Shown here one piece after another: positions 13,611 to 61,789 of a DNA stretch of 64,000 bases. Both the position numbers and the translations under genes were made by a program. Position 1 is the first letter of the stretch. The number at the start of each line of letters is the position of its first letter. Source of the stretch: an uncultured Candidatus Saccharibacteria bacterium (lineage in GTDB: Bacteria > Patescibacteriota > Saccharimonadia > Saccharimonadales > SZUA-47); NCBI GenBank assembly GCA_964419675.1, contig CAYQPN010000003.1, positions 75,985 through 139,984 of the forward strand, in the 5' to 3' direction. The notes under the pieces are model-generated. The model was given only the letters and a program-made list of their open reading frames with translations. It did not search any database and was not told the DNA's origin.

Positions 13611-13985
13611 ATGAAACCAAGAATACTATGTATTGAAGACGAACTATTTATAAGCGAGCTATACACCCGCGCGCTTGAAAATGCCGGATATGATGTTCGT
13701 GTTATTGCAGACGGTCAGGAAGGCTTGCAGGAAGCCCTAGCGGGTAACTACGACATAATCCTACTTGATATCATGCTTCCGACAATGAATGGCGTAGACA
13801 TGCTTAAACTTATGCGTAGCCCAACCGTTAATCCACCGCTCGTAAGCAAAATTATCATTACTACAAATCTTGATCAAAAAGAAGAAATACGCAAACAGGT
13901 TGAACAGATGGCCGACGGCTACTTAATAAAAGCTGAGATTACTCCCCGTGAACTAGTAACATACATCCAGCAAGTTACACAGTAA
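13611..13985 (+). CDS. single-domain response regulator
   Basis: 124 aa starting 4 nt after the kinase stop. ILCIEDE, DIILLDIMLP, GYLIKA. No output domain. Confidence 0.85.
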   Translation: MKPRILCIEDELFISELYTRALENAGYDVRVIADGQEGLQEALAGNYDIILLDIMLPTMNGVDMLKLMRSPTVNPPLVSKIIITTNLDQKEEIRKQVEQMADGYLIKAEITPRELVTYIQQVTQ

Positions 13986-13987
13986 GT

Positions 13988-14016
13988 TTCGATCATTGTT
14001 GATTATCAGATATAAT
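13988..14016 (+). promoter_or_regulatory. candidate sigma70-type promoter (copy 1 of the TTATCAGATATAATA element)
   Basis: TATAAT at 14011-14016, preceded 17 nt upstream by TTCGAT. The 15-mer TTATCAGATATAATA recurs at 14306-14320 in front of tRNA-Glu. Confidence 0.35.
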
Positions 14017-14024
14017 AAACCAAG

Positions 14025-14255
14025 CTGTAGCCATTCCAAATTCAAGAGAGGATTCTTGAATTTGAGAGGAATGGCTTGTGTGACCAAGTCATTGTTTAAC
14101 AAAAAGTAACGTCTTTGTTAAACTTGACAGGGCATCAAGTCATGACGAGGTCCCATCGTCTAAAGTGAAGACCGCCAGTGGCGGTATGCAAGACCGGAAG
14201 CGCGACGGCGCTGAGGTGGGGTCGACCAATTCGCTACCGAGCGAATATGGGTGAC
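14025..14255 (+). ncRNA. candidate structured RNA: two long hairpins followed by a tRNA-Glu-derived, tRNA-like element
   Basis: Hairpins at 14029-14076 (AGCCATTCC.AAATTCAAGA/TCTTGAATTT.GGAATGGCT) and 14088-14128 (GTTTAACAAA/TTTGTTAAAC). From 14149, 15 nt are identical to the tRNA-Glu 5' end. Acceptor-like pairing GGTCCCA (14149-14155) / TGGGGTC (14217-14223) is followed by GACCA. There is a D-arm-like GTCT/AGAC, and internal hairpins at 14171-14185, 14200-14211 and 14229-14246. Confidence 0.35.
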
Positions 14256-14290
14256 TAGGACATCTTAACCGTTAGTCAACAATTTATCAC

Positions 14291-14319
14291 TAAACTTACA
14301 CTTTATTATCAGATATAAT
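14291..14319 (+). promoter_or_regulatory. candidate promoter of tRNA-Glu (copy 2 of the TTATCAGATATAATA element)
   Basis: TATAAT at 14314-14319, 15 nt upstream of the mature tRNA 5' end. Confidence 0.4.
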
Positions 14320-14334
14320 ATACAAGCCTAATAC

Positions 14335-14409
14335 GGTCCCATCGTCTAACGGTTAGGACACTAGATTCTCAATCTAGCAATACGAGTTCGATTCTCGTTG
14401 GGATCACCA
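14335..14409 (+). tRNA. tRNA-Glu (anticodon CTC), CCA encoded
   Basis: Manual cloverleaf. Acceptor GGTCCCA/TGGGATC, D-arm GTCT-AACGGTTA-GGAC, anticodon arm CTAGA-TTCTCAA-TCTAG, T-arm ACGAG-TTCGATT-CTCGT, then discriminator A plus CCA. Confidence 0.93.
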
Positions 14410-14414
14410 AATAA

Positions 14415-14446
14415 AATTGCTCACTGTTAAGTGAGCAATTTTATTT
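14415..14446 (+). terminator. rho-independent terminator after tRNA-Glu
   Basis: Perfect stem AATTGCTCAC / GTGAGCAATT with loop TGTTAA, followed by TTATTT. A-rich on the 5' side, so potentially bidirectional. Confidence 0.7.
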
Positions 14447-14454
14447 GATAATTA

Positions 14455-14596
14455 CCCAAACGAGAAGCGAACTCGACAAGCGAGTCCAACGAGCGGAGTT
14501 CGAAGACAAGTGCAGTGAAGAGAAAGCGCGAAGCATTTTCTTTGAACAAGCGCAGGCGCATCCGCCCAAGGCGGATATTCTCGCTTTGGATCACCA
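14455..14596 (+). other. structured leader-like element ending in a degenerate copy of the tRNA-Glu 3' end
   Basis: ATTCTCGCTTTGGATCACCA (14577-14596) matches the tRNA 3' end ATTCTCGTTGGGATCACCA (14391-14409) with one indel and one substitution. CCAAACGAGAA (14456-14466) can pair with TTCTCGCTTTGG. Internal helices are CGAACTC/GAGTTCG and ATCCGCC/GGCGGAT. The element ends 18 nt before the ATG at 14615. Confidence 0.3.
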
Positions 14597-14614
14597 TTTT
14601 GATATTATTGTCAT

Positions 14615-15187
14615 ATGACCGTGATTCATAAGTTCAGCCCCTTAGTATTACTAACTTTATCTCAAATACTCTGGTGGGGCTCTCTTGCTGTCTGTTATTT
14701 AGTGAATCCGTCTGTATTGAATAGTGGTGAAGTTATAAGTCTCTACGGAACATTTCCGGAGACTATGTGGATATTTGGGTTTGGACTCGTGAGTAGCGGG
14801 ATCCTCACTCTTGTGCTGGCAAGTCATCTTAAGCACCAAAAGTATCTTAAAATTACTTTAATTATTGTTGGTTTGTGCTCAATATTATTGCCGTTTTTTA
14901 GACTAAACTCTGGGAATGTTAATTTTCTGTTTCACGCGGTATTCTCGGGTGCTATATTCTTCTGCGAAGCGTTAGGGCTCTTATTTGTTAACTTAAAACT
15001 TAGAAAGAGTTACTATAAATATTTTTCTGCTTTCATGACAATCTGTATTCTCGTACTATTTTTAAGTCTTGGTGAAATTGGGATACTTAATCTATTACTG
15101 GCTAGCGAGTTTGCAGTACCGATTATCTTTGGTGCATGGTTGCAAGTGATAGCTAGACGGGAAGATGTTTTTTCTGTATTAGCCTAA
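14615..15187 (+). CDS. hypothetical multi-pass membrane protein
   Basis: 190 aa with about six hydrophobic helices. No motif recognised. Confidence 0.5.
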   Translation: MTVIHKFSPLVLLTLSQILWWGSLAVCYLVNPSVLNSGEVISLYGTFPETMWIFGFGLVSSGILTLVLASHLKHQKYLKITLIIVGLCSILLPFFRLNSGNVNFLFHAVFSGAIFFCEALGLLFVNLKLRKSYYKYFSAFMTICILVLFLSLGEIGILNLLLASEFAVPIIFGAWLQVIARREDVFSVLA

Positions 15188-15206: not shown

Positions 15207-16052
15207 CTATGCAACTAACAGCTTTTGAATGTGTAGTCCGTCAAGACGATCGACATTCTGATGAATATTTGACAGCATAAGAGGTTTATAAATATTCAAC
15301 CGATTATAGTGTGCCACTAGTGGTGCGGTACCAATCACAAATAACGGAATTTTTGACTGGCCCAAAGCTCTATCCACACCCTTAGCAACATTTCTGATAA
15401 AAGTATCTTCAAGCATTTTACTTCGATCTTTATAGCCACCGTGACCATGAAAGGCCTCAGAATTCTTGATGCCTCCAAGTCCAACCATATGAGTTTGCAA
15501 ATCCTCGCCAGGTTCGTCTAGGTGCAAAGACTTTTTCAAATCTTCCGGAATCTTTTTTTCGGCAATACGAGTAACAGATGCATCGTTCCTAACTCTAAAG
15601 AGACGAGTATTTTTTTTACTAAGCGCTAGAATAAAATGATTATGAAGAGTTTCTGGTTCCAAGATGCTCAAAGGTTCAACCACAAAACGAACACCAACAA
15701 AAATTCGCTGTTCAAAGCTATGATTAATTCTAAATTTATAAATTGCTTCATCATTTATGAATATAGCCAGACCTTTTGACTGAGATTCCCAGAAAAGAAG
15801 TTCGTCTATCATTTTTCTTGCTAGCTCAACCCATTTTGTATCTTTTTTTACCTCTAACGGCATAAAGTTGCCTAAGGCCATTTGTTTGGCAGACCTAAGA
15901 GCATTTTTAAAGACAATTCTATTTGATTCTGTACCAGAAAAACCCGGCTTCATAGGCAAATAAATCGATATGCTTGGCGTTGATTCTTGTCTGGCTAATT
16001 TGTTTATTGTATAAGGCGTAATCGTATTAATCATAATCACCACCACACTCAA
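15207..16052 (-). CDS. eRF1-like (baeRF-family-like) protein, hypothetical
   Basis: 281 aa. The N-terminal pattern PSISIYLPMKPG...ESNRIVFKNALRSA and overall layout match my recollection of bacterial eRF1-like baeRF families. No GGQ motif seen. Assignment from memory only. Confidence 0.4.
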   Translation of the reverse strand: MSVVVIMINTITPYTINKLARQESTPSISIYLPMKPGFSGTESNRIVFKNALRSAKQMALGNFMPLEVKKDTKWVELARKMIDELLFWESQSKGLAIFINDEAIYKFRINHSFEQRIFVGVRFVVEPLSILEPETLHNHFILALSKKNTRLFRVRNDASVTRIAEKKIPEDLKKSLHLDEPGEDLQTHMVGLGGIKNSEAFHGHGGYKDRSKMLEDTFIRNVAKGVDRALGQSKIPLFVIGTAPLVAHYNRLNIYKPLMLSNIHQNVDRLDGLHIQKLLVA

Positions 16053-26596: not shown

Positions 26597-27155
26597 CACT
26601 TGGGGGCATCGCCGCATCATAGGCTCTGGCAATTCTTTCTTGTACTGATACTGGCCTTTCTGGTTGAGGGTTAGAAGAAACTGGCATCCAAAGTTGAATT
26701 TCCAACTCATCTATTCCTGAGCGTCTTGCTTGCTCAACTGCATTACCCCTATCGCCAATTAATACTGTAGGTAGACCATTCCTTCTCTGTGGGGATACAA
26801 ACTGAAGCCAAGTCGGGTCGGTAACAACTTCAATACCAGCAATTCTAAGAATTGGATAACGATGTTCATCAACGGTCCATCCAGCTCTGTTGTTTACTTC
26901 GGGATCAAGCCCCCGATCTCGCAGAGCATCAAGCATGCTTGTGGTAACTTGTCTACATCTTCTGGAAAACGGTATCTCCGATACTTCTATACCACTTGAT
27001 CTTGATTCAGCCCTATACGCCTCTTCAGCCGATTCAGTTATTAGTCTCGTCATCTCCTCATCTAACCCGCCAGAGACACCAACAAGTTGTTGGTTCTTAG
27101 GATTAAGTGGTGACTCCGCCCACGGTGGTGAAAATAGATTATTCGCCATATTCAT
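26589..27155 (-). CDS. hypothetical protein with transglutaminase-like (papain-fold Cys-His-Asp) core
   Basis: 188 aa. RRCRQVTTSMLDALRDRGLDPEV...DEHRYPILRIAGIEVVTDPTW fits the C...R..G(I/L)...H...DPT spacing of transglutaminase-like cysteine peptidases. By-eye call only. Confidence 0.4.
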   Translation of the reverse strand: MNMANNLFSPPWAESPLNPKNQQLVGVSGGLDEEMTRLITESAEEAYRAESRSSGIEVSEIPFSRRCRQVTTSMLDALRDRGLDPEVNNRAGWTVDEHRYPILRIAGIEVVTDPTWLQFVSPQRRNGLPTVLIGDRGNAVEQARRSGIDELEIQLWMPVSSNPQPERPVSVQERIARAYDAAMPPSAR

Positions 27156-27204
27156 ATTGTATCACACTAATGCTTAACTGTCAATGAGACTCCTAGCAAT
27201 GTTA

Positions 27205-27800
27205 GGCCTATAGAGGGTGAGGACTGCCAGTGGCAGTACGCAAGAGAATCTAACTGATTTTGAACTTGTTCAATAGTCAAGTTAATTCTGTGGTCACGCT
27301 AGCGTGACTGGGCACCGCTTGGGATGTCCTCCAAATAAATAAGAGTCTACAGAGGTGAGATATGCCTGTGGCATATCGGAACCCACAGACTGATTACAAG
27401 CTTGCTTGAAGTCATGTCGAGGGCGGGTCGAGACTCGGCTGACTTTAGTCACCGAGATCGTGACGAGGGCACCGCCGGCTGTCTACCCCCAATAAAAAGA
27501 GCCTCTAGAGGGGGTGGGCACCGCTAGAGGCTCATTACACCCTTCAACCCACCTTGAAGGCTCCTTAATGCTATCTCGCAATAAGCACTAAGCCCACTCA
27601 ATGGTATTTCCGCTATTAAACTCACAGCTCAAATAAAACGAGGGAGTAATACGGGGTTAAAGGGGATTTACTACTCATCAGCAAATCAAATGATTAACTG
27701 GTGACCAGTAAAACTGTCTTAGAGCTTCCACCGCAAAACGGTGAAAAGCTTGAAGGCGTGGAGGGTAACAACGACTTGCAGGCCAGACTCTAAAACATAA
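27205..27800. ncRNA. candidate large structured non-coding RNA region (class unknown, strand undetermined)
   Basis: The 776-bp gap has no ORF of 60 aa or more. Many perfect 5-10 bp helices are present, including nested domains and a pseudoknot-compatible arrangement (coordinates in findings). GGGCACCGC occurs three times. Confidence 0.4.
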
Positions 27801-27952
27801 ATTCTTTTCAGTCAACCGAGGTTGGTGTTAGAATTTAGGGGTAAAAGGTACGTAATGTCCTATAAATAGGACTTACAAGTTGCTATTCTAGCAAAAAAGT
27901 GTCGTTATGTCAATACTAAAATACTTTTTCGTTGTATAAGCAAAACTATATT

Positions 27953-41355: not shown

Positions 41356-41410
41356 GACTTTTTCTTGTTTATTTTTAGAGGACTATGAGATGGGACAAGC
41401 CCCCTCTCAT

Positions 41411-41463
41411 CGCGCGGTGTGCGGAACAAATCCGACACTCCGGCTGCTCTCCCCAGAAACATC
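41411..41463. repeat. GC-rich motif copy A in the mraZ-rsmH spacer
   Basis: CGCGCGG-[hairpin CGGTGTGCGGA/TCCGACACTCCG]-CCGGCTGCTCTCCCC-AGAAACATC. Confidence 0.55.
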
Positions 41464-41779
41464 TTTCTATTTGTTTTTATTTTTGCAAGGTCACCTAATC
41501 AGCAGCCAACTTTTTGTTTTGAAAAGTTTTTGTTTTTGTTTATCTAAAACGATGCGAATTTCGGAAGTTATGTGTAAGAGATTTAAAAAATCCCTAAATA
41601 ATCTTCTTTCTCATCTGGTTTTAGAAGTTGAGAGACTTATGTGTGAGGTGGAGTTTTGGGAGGTGTTTTTTATGGAATGTACGAAGGTTTTTAATGTGGT
41701 TACCTTAAATCCACATGTTGGTTGCCGATTAGCTAACCTCGAGGCGTGGTATCAAGACACCCCTTCGGGGTTTCTTGGG

Positions 41780-41831
41780 CGCGCGGGGAACGAAATAAAT
41801 TCGTTCATCCGGCTGCTCTTCCCGATGCATC
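41780..41831. repeat. GC-rich motif copy B in the mraZ-rsmH spacer
   Basis: CGCGCGG-[hairpin GAACGAA/TTCGTTC]-CCGGCTGCTCTTCCC-GATGCATC. The flanks match copy A; the hairpin has a different sequence at the same position. Confidence 0.55.
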
Positions 41832-41906
41832 GCTACATCAGAAAAAACTCTTTGGTTTTCTAATCTTTTTTCTTGCTAAATTTTTAATGTACTTAAACTA
41901 TGGATA

Positions 41907-61650: not shown

Positions 61651-61789
61651 CTAAACTAACTGATTCTGGCTTCTTTTTGGTCGAACGATACAACAAAGAT
61701 GCGAGAAGCGGAGTGATGTCGTACGTATGGTACGATGAGCGAGCATCGCAGATTCTGCGGCAGTAGCGTTCAGCAAAAAGGAGTCCAGA
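61651..61789 (+). promoter_or_regulatory. structured 5' leader candidate upstream of rpmA
   Basis: GATGC (61698-61702) / GCATC (61743-61747) encloses AGTGA plus the hairpin TCGTAC-GTATG-GTACGA (61719-61735). RBS AAAGGAG at 61777-61783. Confidence 0.3.

Follow-up and report, generated by a model that had tools for sequence, protein, structure and literature searches.

Two intergenic regions lying 13 kb apart in the stretch of Saccharibacteria DNA analysed here (64,000 nucleotides from an uncultured bacterium, hereafter the window) carry the same short hairpin, and the question that they raise is what links them. An earlier note on this DNA described three ungapped 30-nt strings and read them as a recurring module whose RNA structure is under selection, possibly for docking a protein or another RNA. 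The strings are found on the + strand at 14164-14193, 27216-27245 and 27354-27383. The first two are identical at 25 of 30 positions, with four of the five differences making up pairs 6/24 and 10/20, and the third carries compensatory changes at 8/22 and 9/21, all as had been reported; in that copy the G.A juxtaposition at 7/23 becomes an A-U pair. The strings are not, however, a stand-alone docking module common to gene leaders: the 30-nt module is the 5' end (hairpin 1) of a larger, four-helix folded element, named E here, that sits in tRNA-derived sequence. What the two window loci have in common is an insertion element found throughout Saccharibacteria, and not a regulatory role.

Element E is about 87 nt long, and in one subtype it is longer, up to about 110 nt. 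Between the termini 5'-G(U)GAR and GUGAC-3' it has three hairpin arms, namely hairpin 1, P2 with P3 as its cap, and P4, which together make four helices. We aligned 63 Saccharibacteria copies with one copy from the window, B1, and this alignment of 64 sequences (A1) gives the consensus GGUGAGAAnUGCCAGUGGCAnUUCGCAAGGnAAUCUUCC..UG.AAACUUGUUUUCAA.G..GAAGUU.CGGGGUCGCGGAA.GUGACC, in which P3 is capped by a CUUG-type loop and P4 by a GAA-type triloop. Loop bases are invariant across A1, GCCWGUGGC being one invariant loop, and hairpin 1 and P4 differ in sequence. The 5' GUGA, which the three strings had suggested to be invariant, is not so in the family, where GAGA, GCGA and GGGA starts also occur. 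In a second subtype, which includes the window copies A and B2, hairpin 1 is followed by GCAAGGCCGGAA and P4 is longer; the ends of subtype-2 copies were read by eye.

The fold is conserved by covariation. RNAalifold placed 33 base pairs on A1, of which 27 show double compensatory changes. In this structure 95.1% of the cells are paired, compared with 71.3% after shuffling (none of 500 shuffles was as high), and 468 double-change cells were observed compared with 126 after shuffling; the seed was picked by a sequence pattern and its members are related, so these figures overstate independence, and the choice of seed and high-scoring hits for good matches inflates the apparent structural conservation. 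When the pairing partners were slid by one to three columns, only 28-43% of the cells paired. All five variable pairs of hairpin 1 covary over the 64 sequences, with 99% of cells paired, which upholds the proposed selection on secondary structure; additional copies, which might have broken the proposed pairs, keep 95% of cells paired. Pair 83/92 of P4 is a G.U wobble in 55 of the 64 sequences, and in our tally of the A1 pair table G.U cells are roughly four to five times as frequent as A.C cells. The excess of G.U over A.C together with the P4 wobble indicates that the fold forms on the + (tRNA-sense) strand, and this strand evidence is compatible with RNA and with single-stranded DNA alike. 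Together with the enclosing host stem, E is predicted to form a four-way junction.

The distribution of E was examined in two ways. An exact-pattern scan of one genome per species returned at least 120 stretches; the overwhelming majority of the matches listed are from Saccharibacteria (Saccharimonadales), often several per genome, and the further helices of E always follow the hairpin 1 module. A covariance model, R1, was built from A1; its E-values are rough, owing to a short calibration. With filters off, R1 gave exactly three significant hits in the 64-kb window: B1 (27216-27309, 64 bits), whose own sequence is in the seed, and two copies outside the seed, B2 (27354-27440, 48 bits, E-value 1e-9) and A (14164-14227, 34 bits, E-value 3e-6). 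The similarity of the three strings is therefore not a matter of chance, as the earlier note had argued. A looser fourth instance that it placed in the rpmA leader (61719-61735, + strand) is not recovered by R1 even at an E-value of up to 10 with filters off. The search for further copies in related genomes, which had been put forward as a check, yielded 134 hits at E-values below 0.01 in 100 Saccharibacteria loci (0.70 Mb), with a local density of up to five per 1.6 kb.

Outside this group, R1 found no convincing copy in 19 non-Saccharibacteria loci that match the pattern. Two hits labelled Calothrix and Rhodoglobus sit on short contigs of metagenome-assembled genomes and are probably the result of mis-binning. 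Four viral contigs match the pattern and none holds a genuine copy, and a phage origin was set aside on this account. Element E is thus found essentially only in Saccharibacteria. The assignment of the window itself to this group rests on its synteny and common elements with Saccharimonadales genomes. At the gathering thresholds of Rfam 15, tRNA is the sole family to score in the window or in 8 E-rich loci, low-threshold Rfam scans of E loci gave nothing relevant, and a full-text literature search found no description of E, which is apparently previously undescribed. The Rfam family Whalefall-1 (RF01762) was considered as a name for the family: its consensus, a CUUG-loop hairpin followed by GGGUGAGGAC, resembles P3 of one E copy plus the start of the next, and a hit at 27373-27424 overlaps B2. 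This hit scored 19.1 bits, below the gathering score of 37, and two Rfam scans of eleven other E-rich loci did not reproduce it. Whalefall-1 is at most a partial, distant view of the E family.

Copies of E accompany tRNA genes. Among the best 100 R1 hits, 82 share the strand of the nearest tRNA found by ARAGORN within 400 nt, 2 lie opposite to it, and 16 have no tRNA within that distance. Of 106 copies, 101 are intergenic and only 5 overlap an ORF (150 aa or longer), compared with 64% of random windows; the coding or random-strand distribution that might have spoken against the motif is absent. E lies within 300 nt of 81 of 122 tRNAs, a frequency that is biased by the fact that every locus was fetched for the presence of the motif. 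The associated tRNAs cover 27 different anticodons. The host of E is a partial, truncated duplicate of the neighbouring intact tRNA gene, and two layouts recur. In the upstream type, a promoter-like -10 box is followed by a tRNA copy that runs from +1 to the insertion point, then by E, typically about 10-13 further tRNA nucleotides (more in some copies), an AT-rich spacer and the intact tRNA. The downstream type opens with the intact tRNA and its CCA, a terminator hairpin, and a degenerate repeat of the tRNA 3' end in inverted orientation. The variable region and the T-stem 5' strand are then repeated in direct orientation up to E, after which come the remaining T arm, often the acceptor 3' strand with CCA, and another terminator. 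Of 44 downstream units, 38 have a significant inverted copy (median z 5.7), and the spacers of downstream units are uniform at 64-98 nt. The tRNA part is 15 nt long at its shortest and almost complete at its longest, and it is often decayed. Antisense placement is seen in locus B of the window and at tRNA-Phe in loci L031 and L084.

Both layouts are present at locus A (Table 1), the gap at 13986-14614 that separates a response-regulator gene from a DUF998 gene, where the part 5' of tRNA-Glu is an upstream-type unit and the part 3' of it a downstream-type unit. The last base of the 5' tRNA-Glu fragment is a C-to-A change relative to the gene. The layout around copy A is the same as that of tRNA-Glu copies in loci L110 and L073. 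A second, tentative E has the inverted copy on its 5' side and the direct 3' fragment on its 3' side.

Table 1. Features of the two window loci that carry element E (positions are those of the window)
Feature	Position	Strand	Basis
Locus A: 5' tRNA-Glu fragment GGTCCCATCGTCTAA, equal to the first 15 nt of the gene (14335-14349)	14150-14164	+	Direct comparison
Locus A: E copy A, subtype 2, long last helix; replaces D-loop GGT	14165-14255	+	R1 hit; ends by eye
Locus A: hairpin 1 of copy A	14169-14187	+	
Locus A: TAGGACA, D-arm continuation (equal to 14354-14360), after which the tRNA copy stops	14256-14262	+	Direct comparison
Locus A: second promoter-like box, before intact tRNA-Glu	14303		
Locus A: intact tRNA-Glu(CTC), parent of the flanking fragments and sole tRNA gene of the window	14335-14409	+	ARAGORN; Rfam 64 bits
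Locus A: terminator hairpin 3' of tRNA-Glu	14410-14445		
Locus A: tRNA-Glu 3' end repeated in inverted orientation, degenerate, TGATAATTACCCAAACGAGAAGCGAACTCG, just past the terminator hairpin	14446-14475	+	
Locus A: degenerate or miniature E (tentative), at the T-loop position of the 3' tRNA-Glu fragment	14515-14576	+	Weak R1 hit 14514-14576, E-value about 1
Locus A: direct copy of the tRNA-Glu 3' end, ATTCTCGCTTTGGATCACCA (cf. 14390-14409)	14577-14596	+	Sequence comparison
Locus B: E copy B1, subtype 1; hairpin 1, P2/P3 with CUUG loop, P4 GGUCACGCUAGCGUGAC	27217-27308	+	R1 64 bits; aligned with 63 homologues
Locus B: E copy B2, subtype 2, extended P4	27355-27464	+	R1 48 bits; ends by eye
Locus B: empty host hairpin GAGCCUCUAG-AGGGGGUGGGCACCG-CUAGAGGCUC, loop is the target	27499-27533	+	

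Locus B is the gap at 27156-27931 between a minus-strand hypothetical gene and dprA-topA, and it is without a tRNA. B1 and B2 each lie inside a partial duplicate of the empty host hairpin, whose conserved loop is AGGGGGUGGGCACCG; both are flanked by CTMTAGAG and GGGCACCGC, at 27209-27216 and 27309-27318 for B1 and at 27347-27354 and 27465-27475 for B2. The fold of B2 has a z of -4.75. The same arrangement upstream of dprA is found in loci L086 and L075, and a non-coding region of about 390 nt (27545-27880) is common to the window and these two loci. DprA of the window is only 38-43% identical to that of L086 and L075, and synteny of the locus despite about 40% DprA identity points to long retention of E. 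A minus-strand promoter (27913-27885) is conserved in the non-coding region, and the empty hairpin serves as the terminator of this minus-strand transcription unit, which places E antisense to its host in locus B. A minus-strand reading of E itself, suggested by this promoter and by T-runs after the hairpins, was rejected: both belong to the separate conserved RNA region, and the G.U pairs and the tRNA co-orientation put E on the + strand. RNase P, tmRNA and SRP were considered as the identity of the host and found no support from Rfam or ARAGORN; any similarity of the host to the P15 region of RNase P is tentative.

The junctions of E follow a precise rule. It was counted by mapping the flanks of E onto the neighbouring intact tRNA, the unmappable remainder having diverged flanks. 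Exactly three host nucleotides are replaced by E in all 64 cases counted, and in one further mappable case four are missing. The replaced triplet is GTT in 35 cases, GGT in 20 and another G-starting triplet in 9; the base 5' of it is G in 53 of 64, and the base 3' of it is C in 46 and T in 17. The target can be generalised as G-K-T with G before and C or T after. Since E itself begins with G(U), one or two bases at the start of the replaced triplet are effectively kept. Fifty of the 64 sites are in the T loop, where GTT is the commonest site of all, 7 are at positions 24-26, 3 in the variable loop, 2 in the anticodon loop and 2 in the D loop. The rule also applies elsewhere. In the non-tRNA hairpin loop of locus B the replaced triplet is GGG, between AGAGG and UGGGCACC, and in locus L117 a nested E replaces GGT in the 5' strand of P4 of another copy. 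Two copies in different loops of one pseudo-tRNA are found in L056 and L073. Terminal inverted repeats are absent from E, the ends 5'-GUGAR and GUGAC-3' being direct and not inverted, and no target-site duplication is seen at the junctions of the 64 cases counted. We know of no chemistry among the transposons, integrases, integrons and introns compared here that replaces three nucleotides without terminal repeats or target duplication.

The mean identity of E copies is about 66%, near the floor set by the conserved positions. Copies within a genome average 70% identity, a value as high being reached in 3 of 2000 permutations, and 11 of 55 copies have their nearest neighbour in their own genome, compared with 1.1 expected. 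A nearest-neighbour test found no clustering of copies by tRNA type. These identities suggest some local duplication or conversion and no recent burst, and the within-genome value, barely above the between-genome value (0.70 and 0.66), makes recent mobility weak. Diverged copies that remain about 95% paired, together with the retention of the dprA locus, point to ongoing selection on the fold of individual copies, to which the ascertainment caveat given above applies.

The explanation that we favour, with confidence a little better than even, is that E is an insertion-derived structured element, aimed at GGTTC-like sites, that is under structural selection. E would have started as, and perhaps still is, an insertion element for such sites; nesting, several insertions per pseudo-tRNA and the precise junctions all suggest an origin by insertion. 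Its survival would be confined to redundant tRNA copies, because disrupting a single-copy tRNA gene would be lethal. The E-bearing copies would later have been truncated, losing one acceptor strand and with it tRNA function. The combination of about 66% identity with about 95% pairing, a conserved G.U pair and invariant loop bases argues for continuing strand-specific selection on the fold, and E may be kept for a structure-dependent role, most simply as an RNA co-transcribed with tRNA precursors, in which it would most likely serve as a stable protein- or RNA-binding domain. The strand agreement of 82 to 2 fits co-transcription and also fits the GGTTC target preference, as GGTTC is found on the sense strand only. 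The antisense cases (locus B and the tRNA-Phe copies) fit a DNA-level target on E's own strand better than co-transcription. Several observations are counted against this explanation. Among transposase, integrase and reverse transcriptase genes, none was seen in association with E; terminal inverted repeats and target duplications are lacking, and the exact three-nucleotide replacement agrees with no insertion chemistry known to us. Recent mobility is weak, with no sign of orthology by tRNA type, and degenerate copies such as the tentative one at 14515-14576 exist.

Known repeats provide a partial precedent for such an element. Rickettsia palindromic elements, REP/BIME, Correia repeats and MITEs are, like E, short (about 100 nt), structured, multi-copy and non-coding, without an enzyme of their own; they also occupy permissive positions, and copies can nest. 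Unlike these repeats, E has neither terminal inverted repeats nor target duplication and replaces three nucleotides, and it is aimed at tRNA loops with GGTTC-like sequence in a strongly strand-specific manner. Its copies have kept their pairing by compensatory change at about 66% identity, a trait uncommon among dead repeats. The units also resemble the att duplications of integrases, in which an intact tRNA lies beside a direct 3' (or 5') partial copy with the break in the T loop. Unlike att sites, the "island" in E units is about 165-185 nt with no integrase and no ORF between tRNA and fragment, the partial copy is interrupted by E, an extra inverted tRNA copy lies between, and 27 anticodons are involved.

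A possible, though less probable, explanation is that E is no insertion relic and instead forms the functional cargo of tRNA-scaffolded small RNAs, perhaps as a protein sponge, a guide or a small ribozyme. A promoter, a stem to close the fold and ends of tRNA type, with RNase P site, CCA tail and terminator, would then come from the tRNA fragments. The uniformity of the units speaks for this, since downstream spacers span 64-98 nt and acceptor-3'-CCA with a terminator of its own closes many units, as do the promoter-like -10 box kept in upstream units, the predicted four-way junction closed by the host stem, the invariant loop bases and conserved G.U pair, and the syntenic locus that has kept E over deep divergence. 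It is weakened by the tRNA part, which varies from 15 nt to near full length and often decays, by nesting and multiple copies per pseudo-tRNA, which resemble insertions, and by the antisense cases. tRNA-derived SINEs and tRNA-scaffolded RNAs are comparable in that a tRNA part is fused to an unrelated structured part and its signals can be reused. Unlike SINEs, E units are not dispersed, each lying beside its parent tRNA, and they bear no sign of retroposition such as a reverse transcriptase or tails.

Somewhat more doubtful is a reading in which E would represent an element of a new class, able to insert itself into the exposed loops of tRNAs and of a few other stable hairpins, always with replacement of three nucleotides, and later domesticated in these ultra-small epibionts as a tRNA-scaffolded structured RNA with a cellular role. 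The insertion would proceed by a chemistry as yet undescribed, such as reversible insertion at the RNA level or the action of a dedicated enzyme that recognises GGTTC in a tRNA-like fold.

We consider it unlikely that E acts as a single-strand DNA fold for a recombinase or HUH-type enzyme, in the manner of integron attC sites, REP sequences or IS200/IS605 ends, with its stems kept for enzyme recognition or by quasi-palindrome correction during replication. Such a fold would explain why the target is set on E's own strand regardless of host transcription in locus B, L031 and L084, and it agrees with the precise junction rule. The C-GAA-G loop of the P4 type and the CTTG loop of the P3 type resemble very stable DNA mini-hairpins, and the inverted and direct partial duplications beside hairpins resemble products of snap-back synthesis. 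However, no associated enzyme gene is seen, the two end hairpins are unlike each other, terminal repeats and target duplications are missing, the wobble pair conserved in 55 of 64 sequences (G.T in DNA) is easier to explain in RNA, and transcription would account for the 82:2 strand agreement with tRNA as well.

It is highly improbable that E is a new tRNA intron, removed by itself or by a host enzyme from genes that still yield working tRNAs. Archaeal bulge-helix-bulge tRNA introns occur at non-canonical positions, and E likewise intervenes in tRNA loops (D, anticodon, variable and T). Group I introns are found in the tRNA anticodon loops of Patescibacteria, a lineage unusually rich in tRNA introns (PMC13011429). 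Group I tRNA introns are usually at least 200 nt and in the anticodon loop, whereas E is 87-110 nt with 50 of 64 sites in the T loop. The hosts of E also differ from intron-bearing genes, as they are mostly truncated pseudo-tRNAs with one acceptor strand missing. When E was excised in silico and the three nucleotides were restored, ARAGORN recovered a junction-spanning tRNA in only 7 of 106 copies, most of which adjoin an intact tRNA gene, and excision failed in 99; with three host nucleotides lost, simple excision would not restore the loop. The group I signature, a catalytic core of P3-P9, is absent: RF00028 has no hit on E, and the same model detects a true intron in locus L099. As regards a bulge-helix-bulge across both exon-intron junctions, inspection by eye showed the two ends to be GUGAG and GUGAC, which are not complementary. 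In favour of an intron, E interrupts a full-length tRNA-Ala(GGC) in locus L119 that has no intact counterpart in its vicinity; this tRNA is probably dispensable by the wobble rules.

The reading of the three copies as chance hairpins, or as a module of some common leader or riboswitch-like kind such as a T-box, a k-turn or a ribosomal-protein leader, for which a superficially T-box-like GGGCACCGC beside B1 and B2, a purine-rich internal loop and the weak 19-bit Whalefall-1 hit could be cited, is refuted by the R1 E-values of the two non-seed copies, by more than 100 homologues, by the lack of any T-box or other Rfam hit at an E-value of up to 10, by a downstream gene that is dprA and not an aminoacyl-tRNA synthetase, by the failure of R1 to detect the rpmA hairpin, and by the absence of Whalefall-1 from eight other E-rich loci. 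Candidates of this kind were examined individually. The T-box model RF00230 has no hit at an E-value of up to 10 in 27100-27950 or 13950-14650, dprA and topA, or a tRNA, lie downstream, and GGGCACCGC is part of the duplicated host hairpin loop. A kink-turn, which calls for a bulge of three nucleotides and then tandem sheared G.A/A.G pairs with GA on each strand, was rejected on inspection of A1, in which the 3' strand reads YGCAAG or YGGAAA, so that an A.G pair is possible but the second pair would be G-C or G.G. Judged by eye, the positions needed for the cores of a kink-turn, a hammerhead or a hairpin ribozyme are base-paired and covarying.

Saccharibacteria genomes are among the smallest and most streamlined in bacteria. 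That such genomes keep many folded copies of about 90 nt, together with partial tRNA duplicates, leaves two possibilities: an RNA function tied to tRNA genes that has gone unrecognised, or a selfish element of unusual success with a new and very precise insertion rule. According to a 2022 transcriptome preprint, there are as yet no validated small RNAs in the Saccharibacteria strain TM7x. For annotation, E units can mislead tRNA prediction by producing pseudo-tRNAs and interrupted genes. Element E also provides a clade-specific marker, and R1 is directly applicable to complete genomes. If either of the two possibilities is true, E would represent new biology for the candidate phyla radiation.

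The element E, a four-helix fold of ~87-110 nt, is also found in tRNA genes and partial tRNA copies of other Saccharibacteria. At locus L119 (872-958, plus flanks) it splits a full-length tRNA-Ala(GGC) gene at position 24-26 and no intact copy is found nearby, while at L106, from a related genome, E lies in an upstream partial tRNA copy and the gene itself is intact. Because the gene carries E in one case and stands intact downstream of E in the other, the sequences suggest that E has been passed between neighbouring tRNA copies through gene conversion. Additionally, lone hairpins (GUCGCGGAACGCGAC) that resemble P4, the last helix of E, occur without the remaining element near the E copies of L037 and L034, one of them in the anticodon loop of a tRNA-Pro, and these may be footprints of deleted E copies. 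The coordinates of further features are included in the table below.

Features located in the window and at locus L099
Feature	Location	Coordinates (strand)	Remarks
Two E copies, head to head	L099	15-103 (+); 111-199 (-)	7 nt apart
Group I intron	L099	7202-7409 (-)	74.5 bits; same locus as the E pair, away from it
Strongly structured leader	window	14027-14149	between promoter-like box and pseudo-tRNA-Glu
Conserved non-coding region, ~390 nt	window	27545-27880	promoter 27913-27885 (-); terminator hairpin 27499-27533
GC-rich hairpin element, two copies	window	41411-41454; 41780-41823	within the mraZ-rsmH/mraW gap

The promoter-like box at the pseudo-tRNA-Glu, ATTATCAGATATAAT, is duplicated in the window (14003 and 14303). 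The first hairpin of the leader, AAATTCAAGAGAGGATTCTTGAATTT, is found again upstream of a pseudo-tRNA-Pro unit at L041 (1223-1248, minus strand) with one compensatory change. A gene encoding a bacterial archaeo-eukaryotic release-factor-like (baeRF) family protein (15207-16052, minus strand) adjoins the tRNA-Glu locus of the window (locus A).

The cumulative GC skew of the window peaks near 33 kb. At this peak gene orientation switches from mostly plus to mostly minus, a pattern compatible with a replication terminus-like point there. Every E copy in the window falls within the plus-oriented half. In the other half, the minus-strand genes mraZ and rsmH/mraW are separated by an unusual gap of 550 nt (41356-41906). 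The two hairpins within it differ by compensatory changes in the stem, and their flanks are conserved (CGCGCGG ... CCGGCUGCUCUYCCC).

The non-coding region upstream of dprA shows 66% column identity with its counterparts at L086 and L075, where its synteny upstream of dprA is kept, although the identity of DprA itself to these homologs is just 38-43%. Its promoter is canonical and conserved, and the terminator hairpin has a conserved 15-nt loop whose sequence complements that of the preceding hairpin's loop. Rfam gave no hit for the region, which may be a hitherto undescribed large non-coding RNA.
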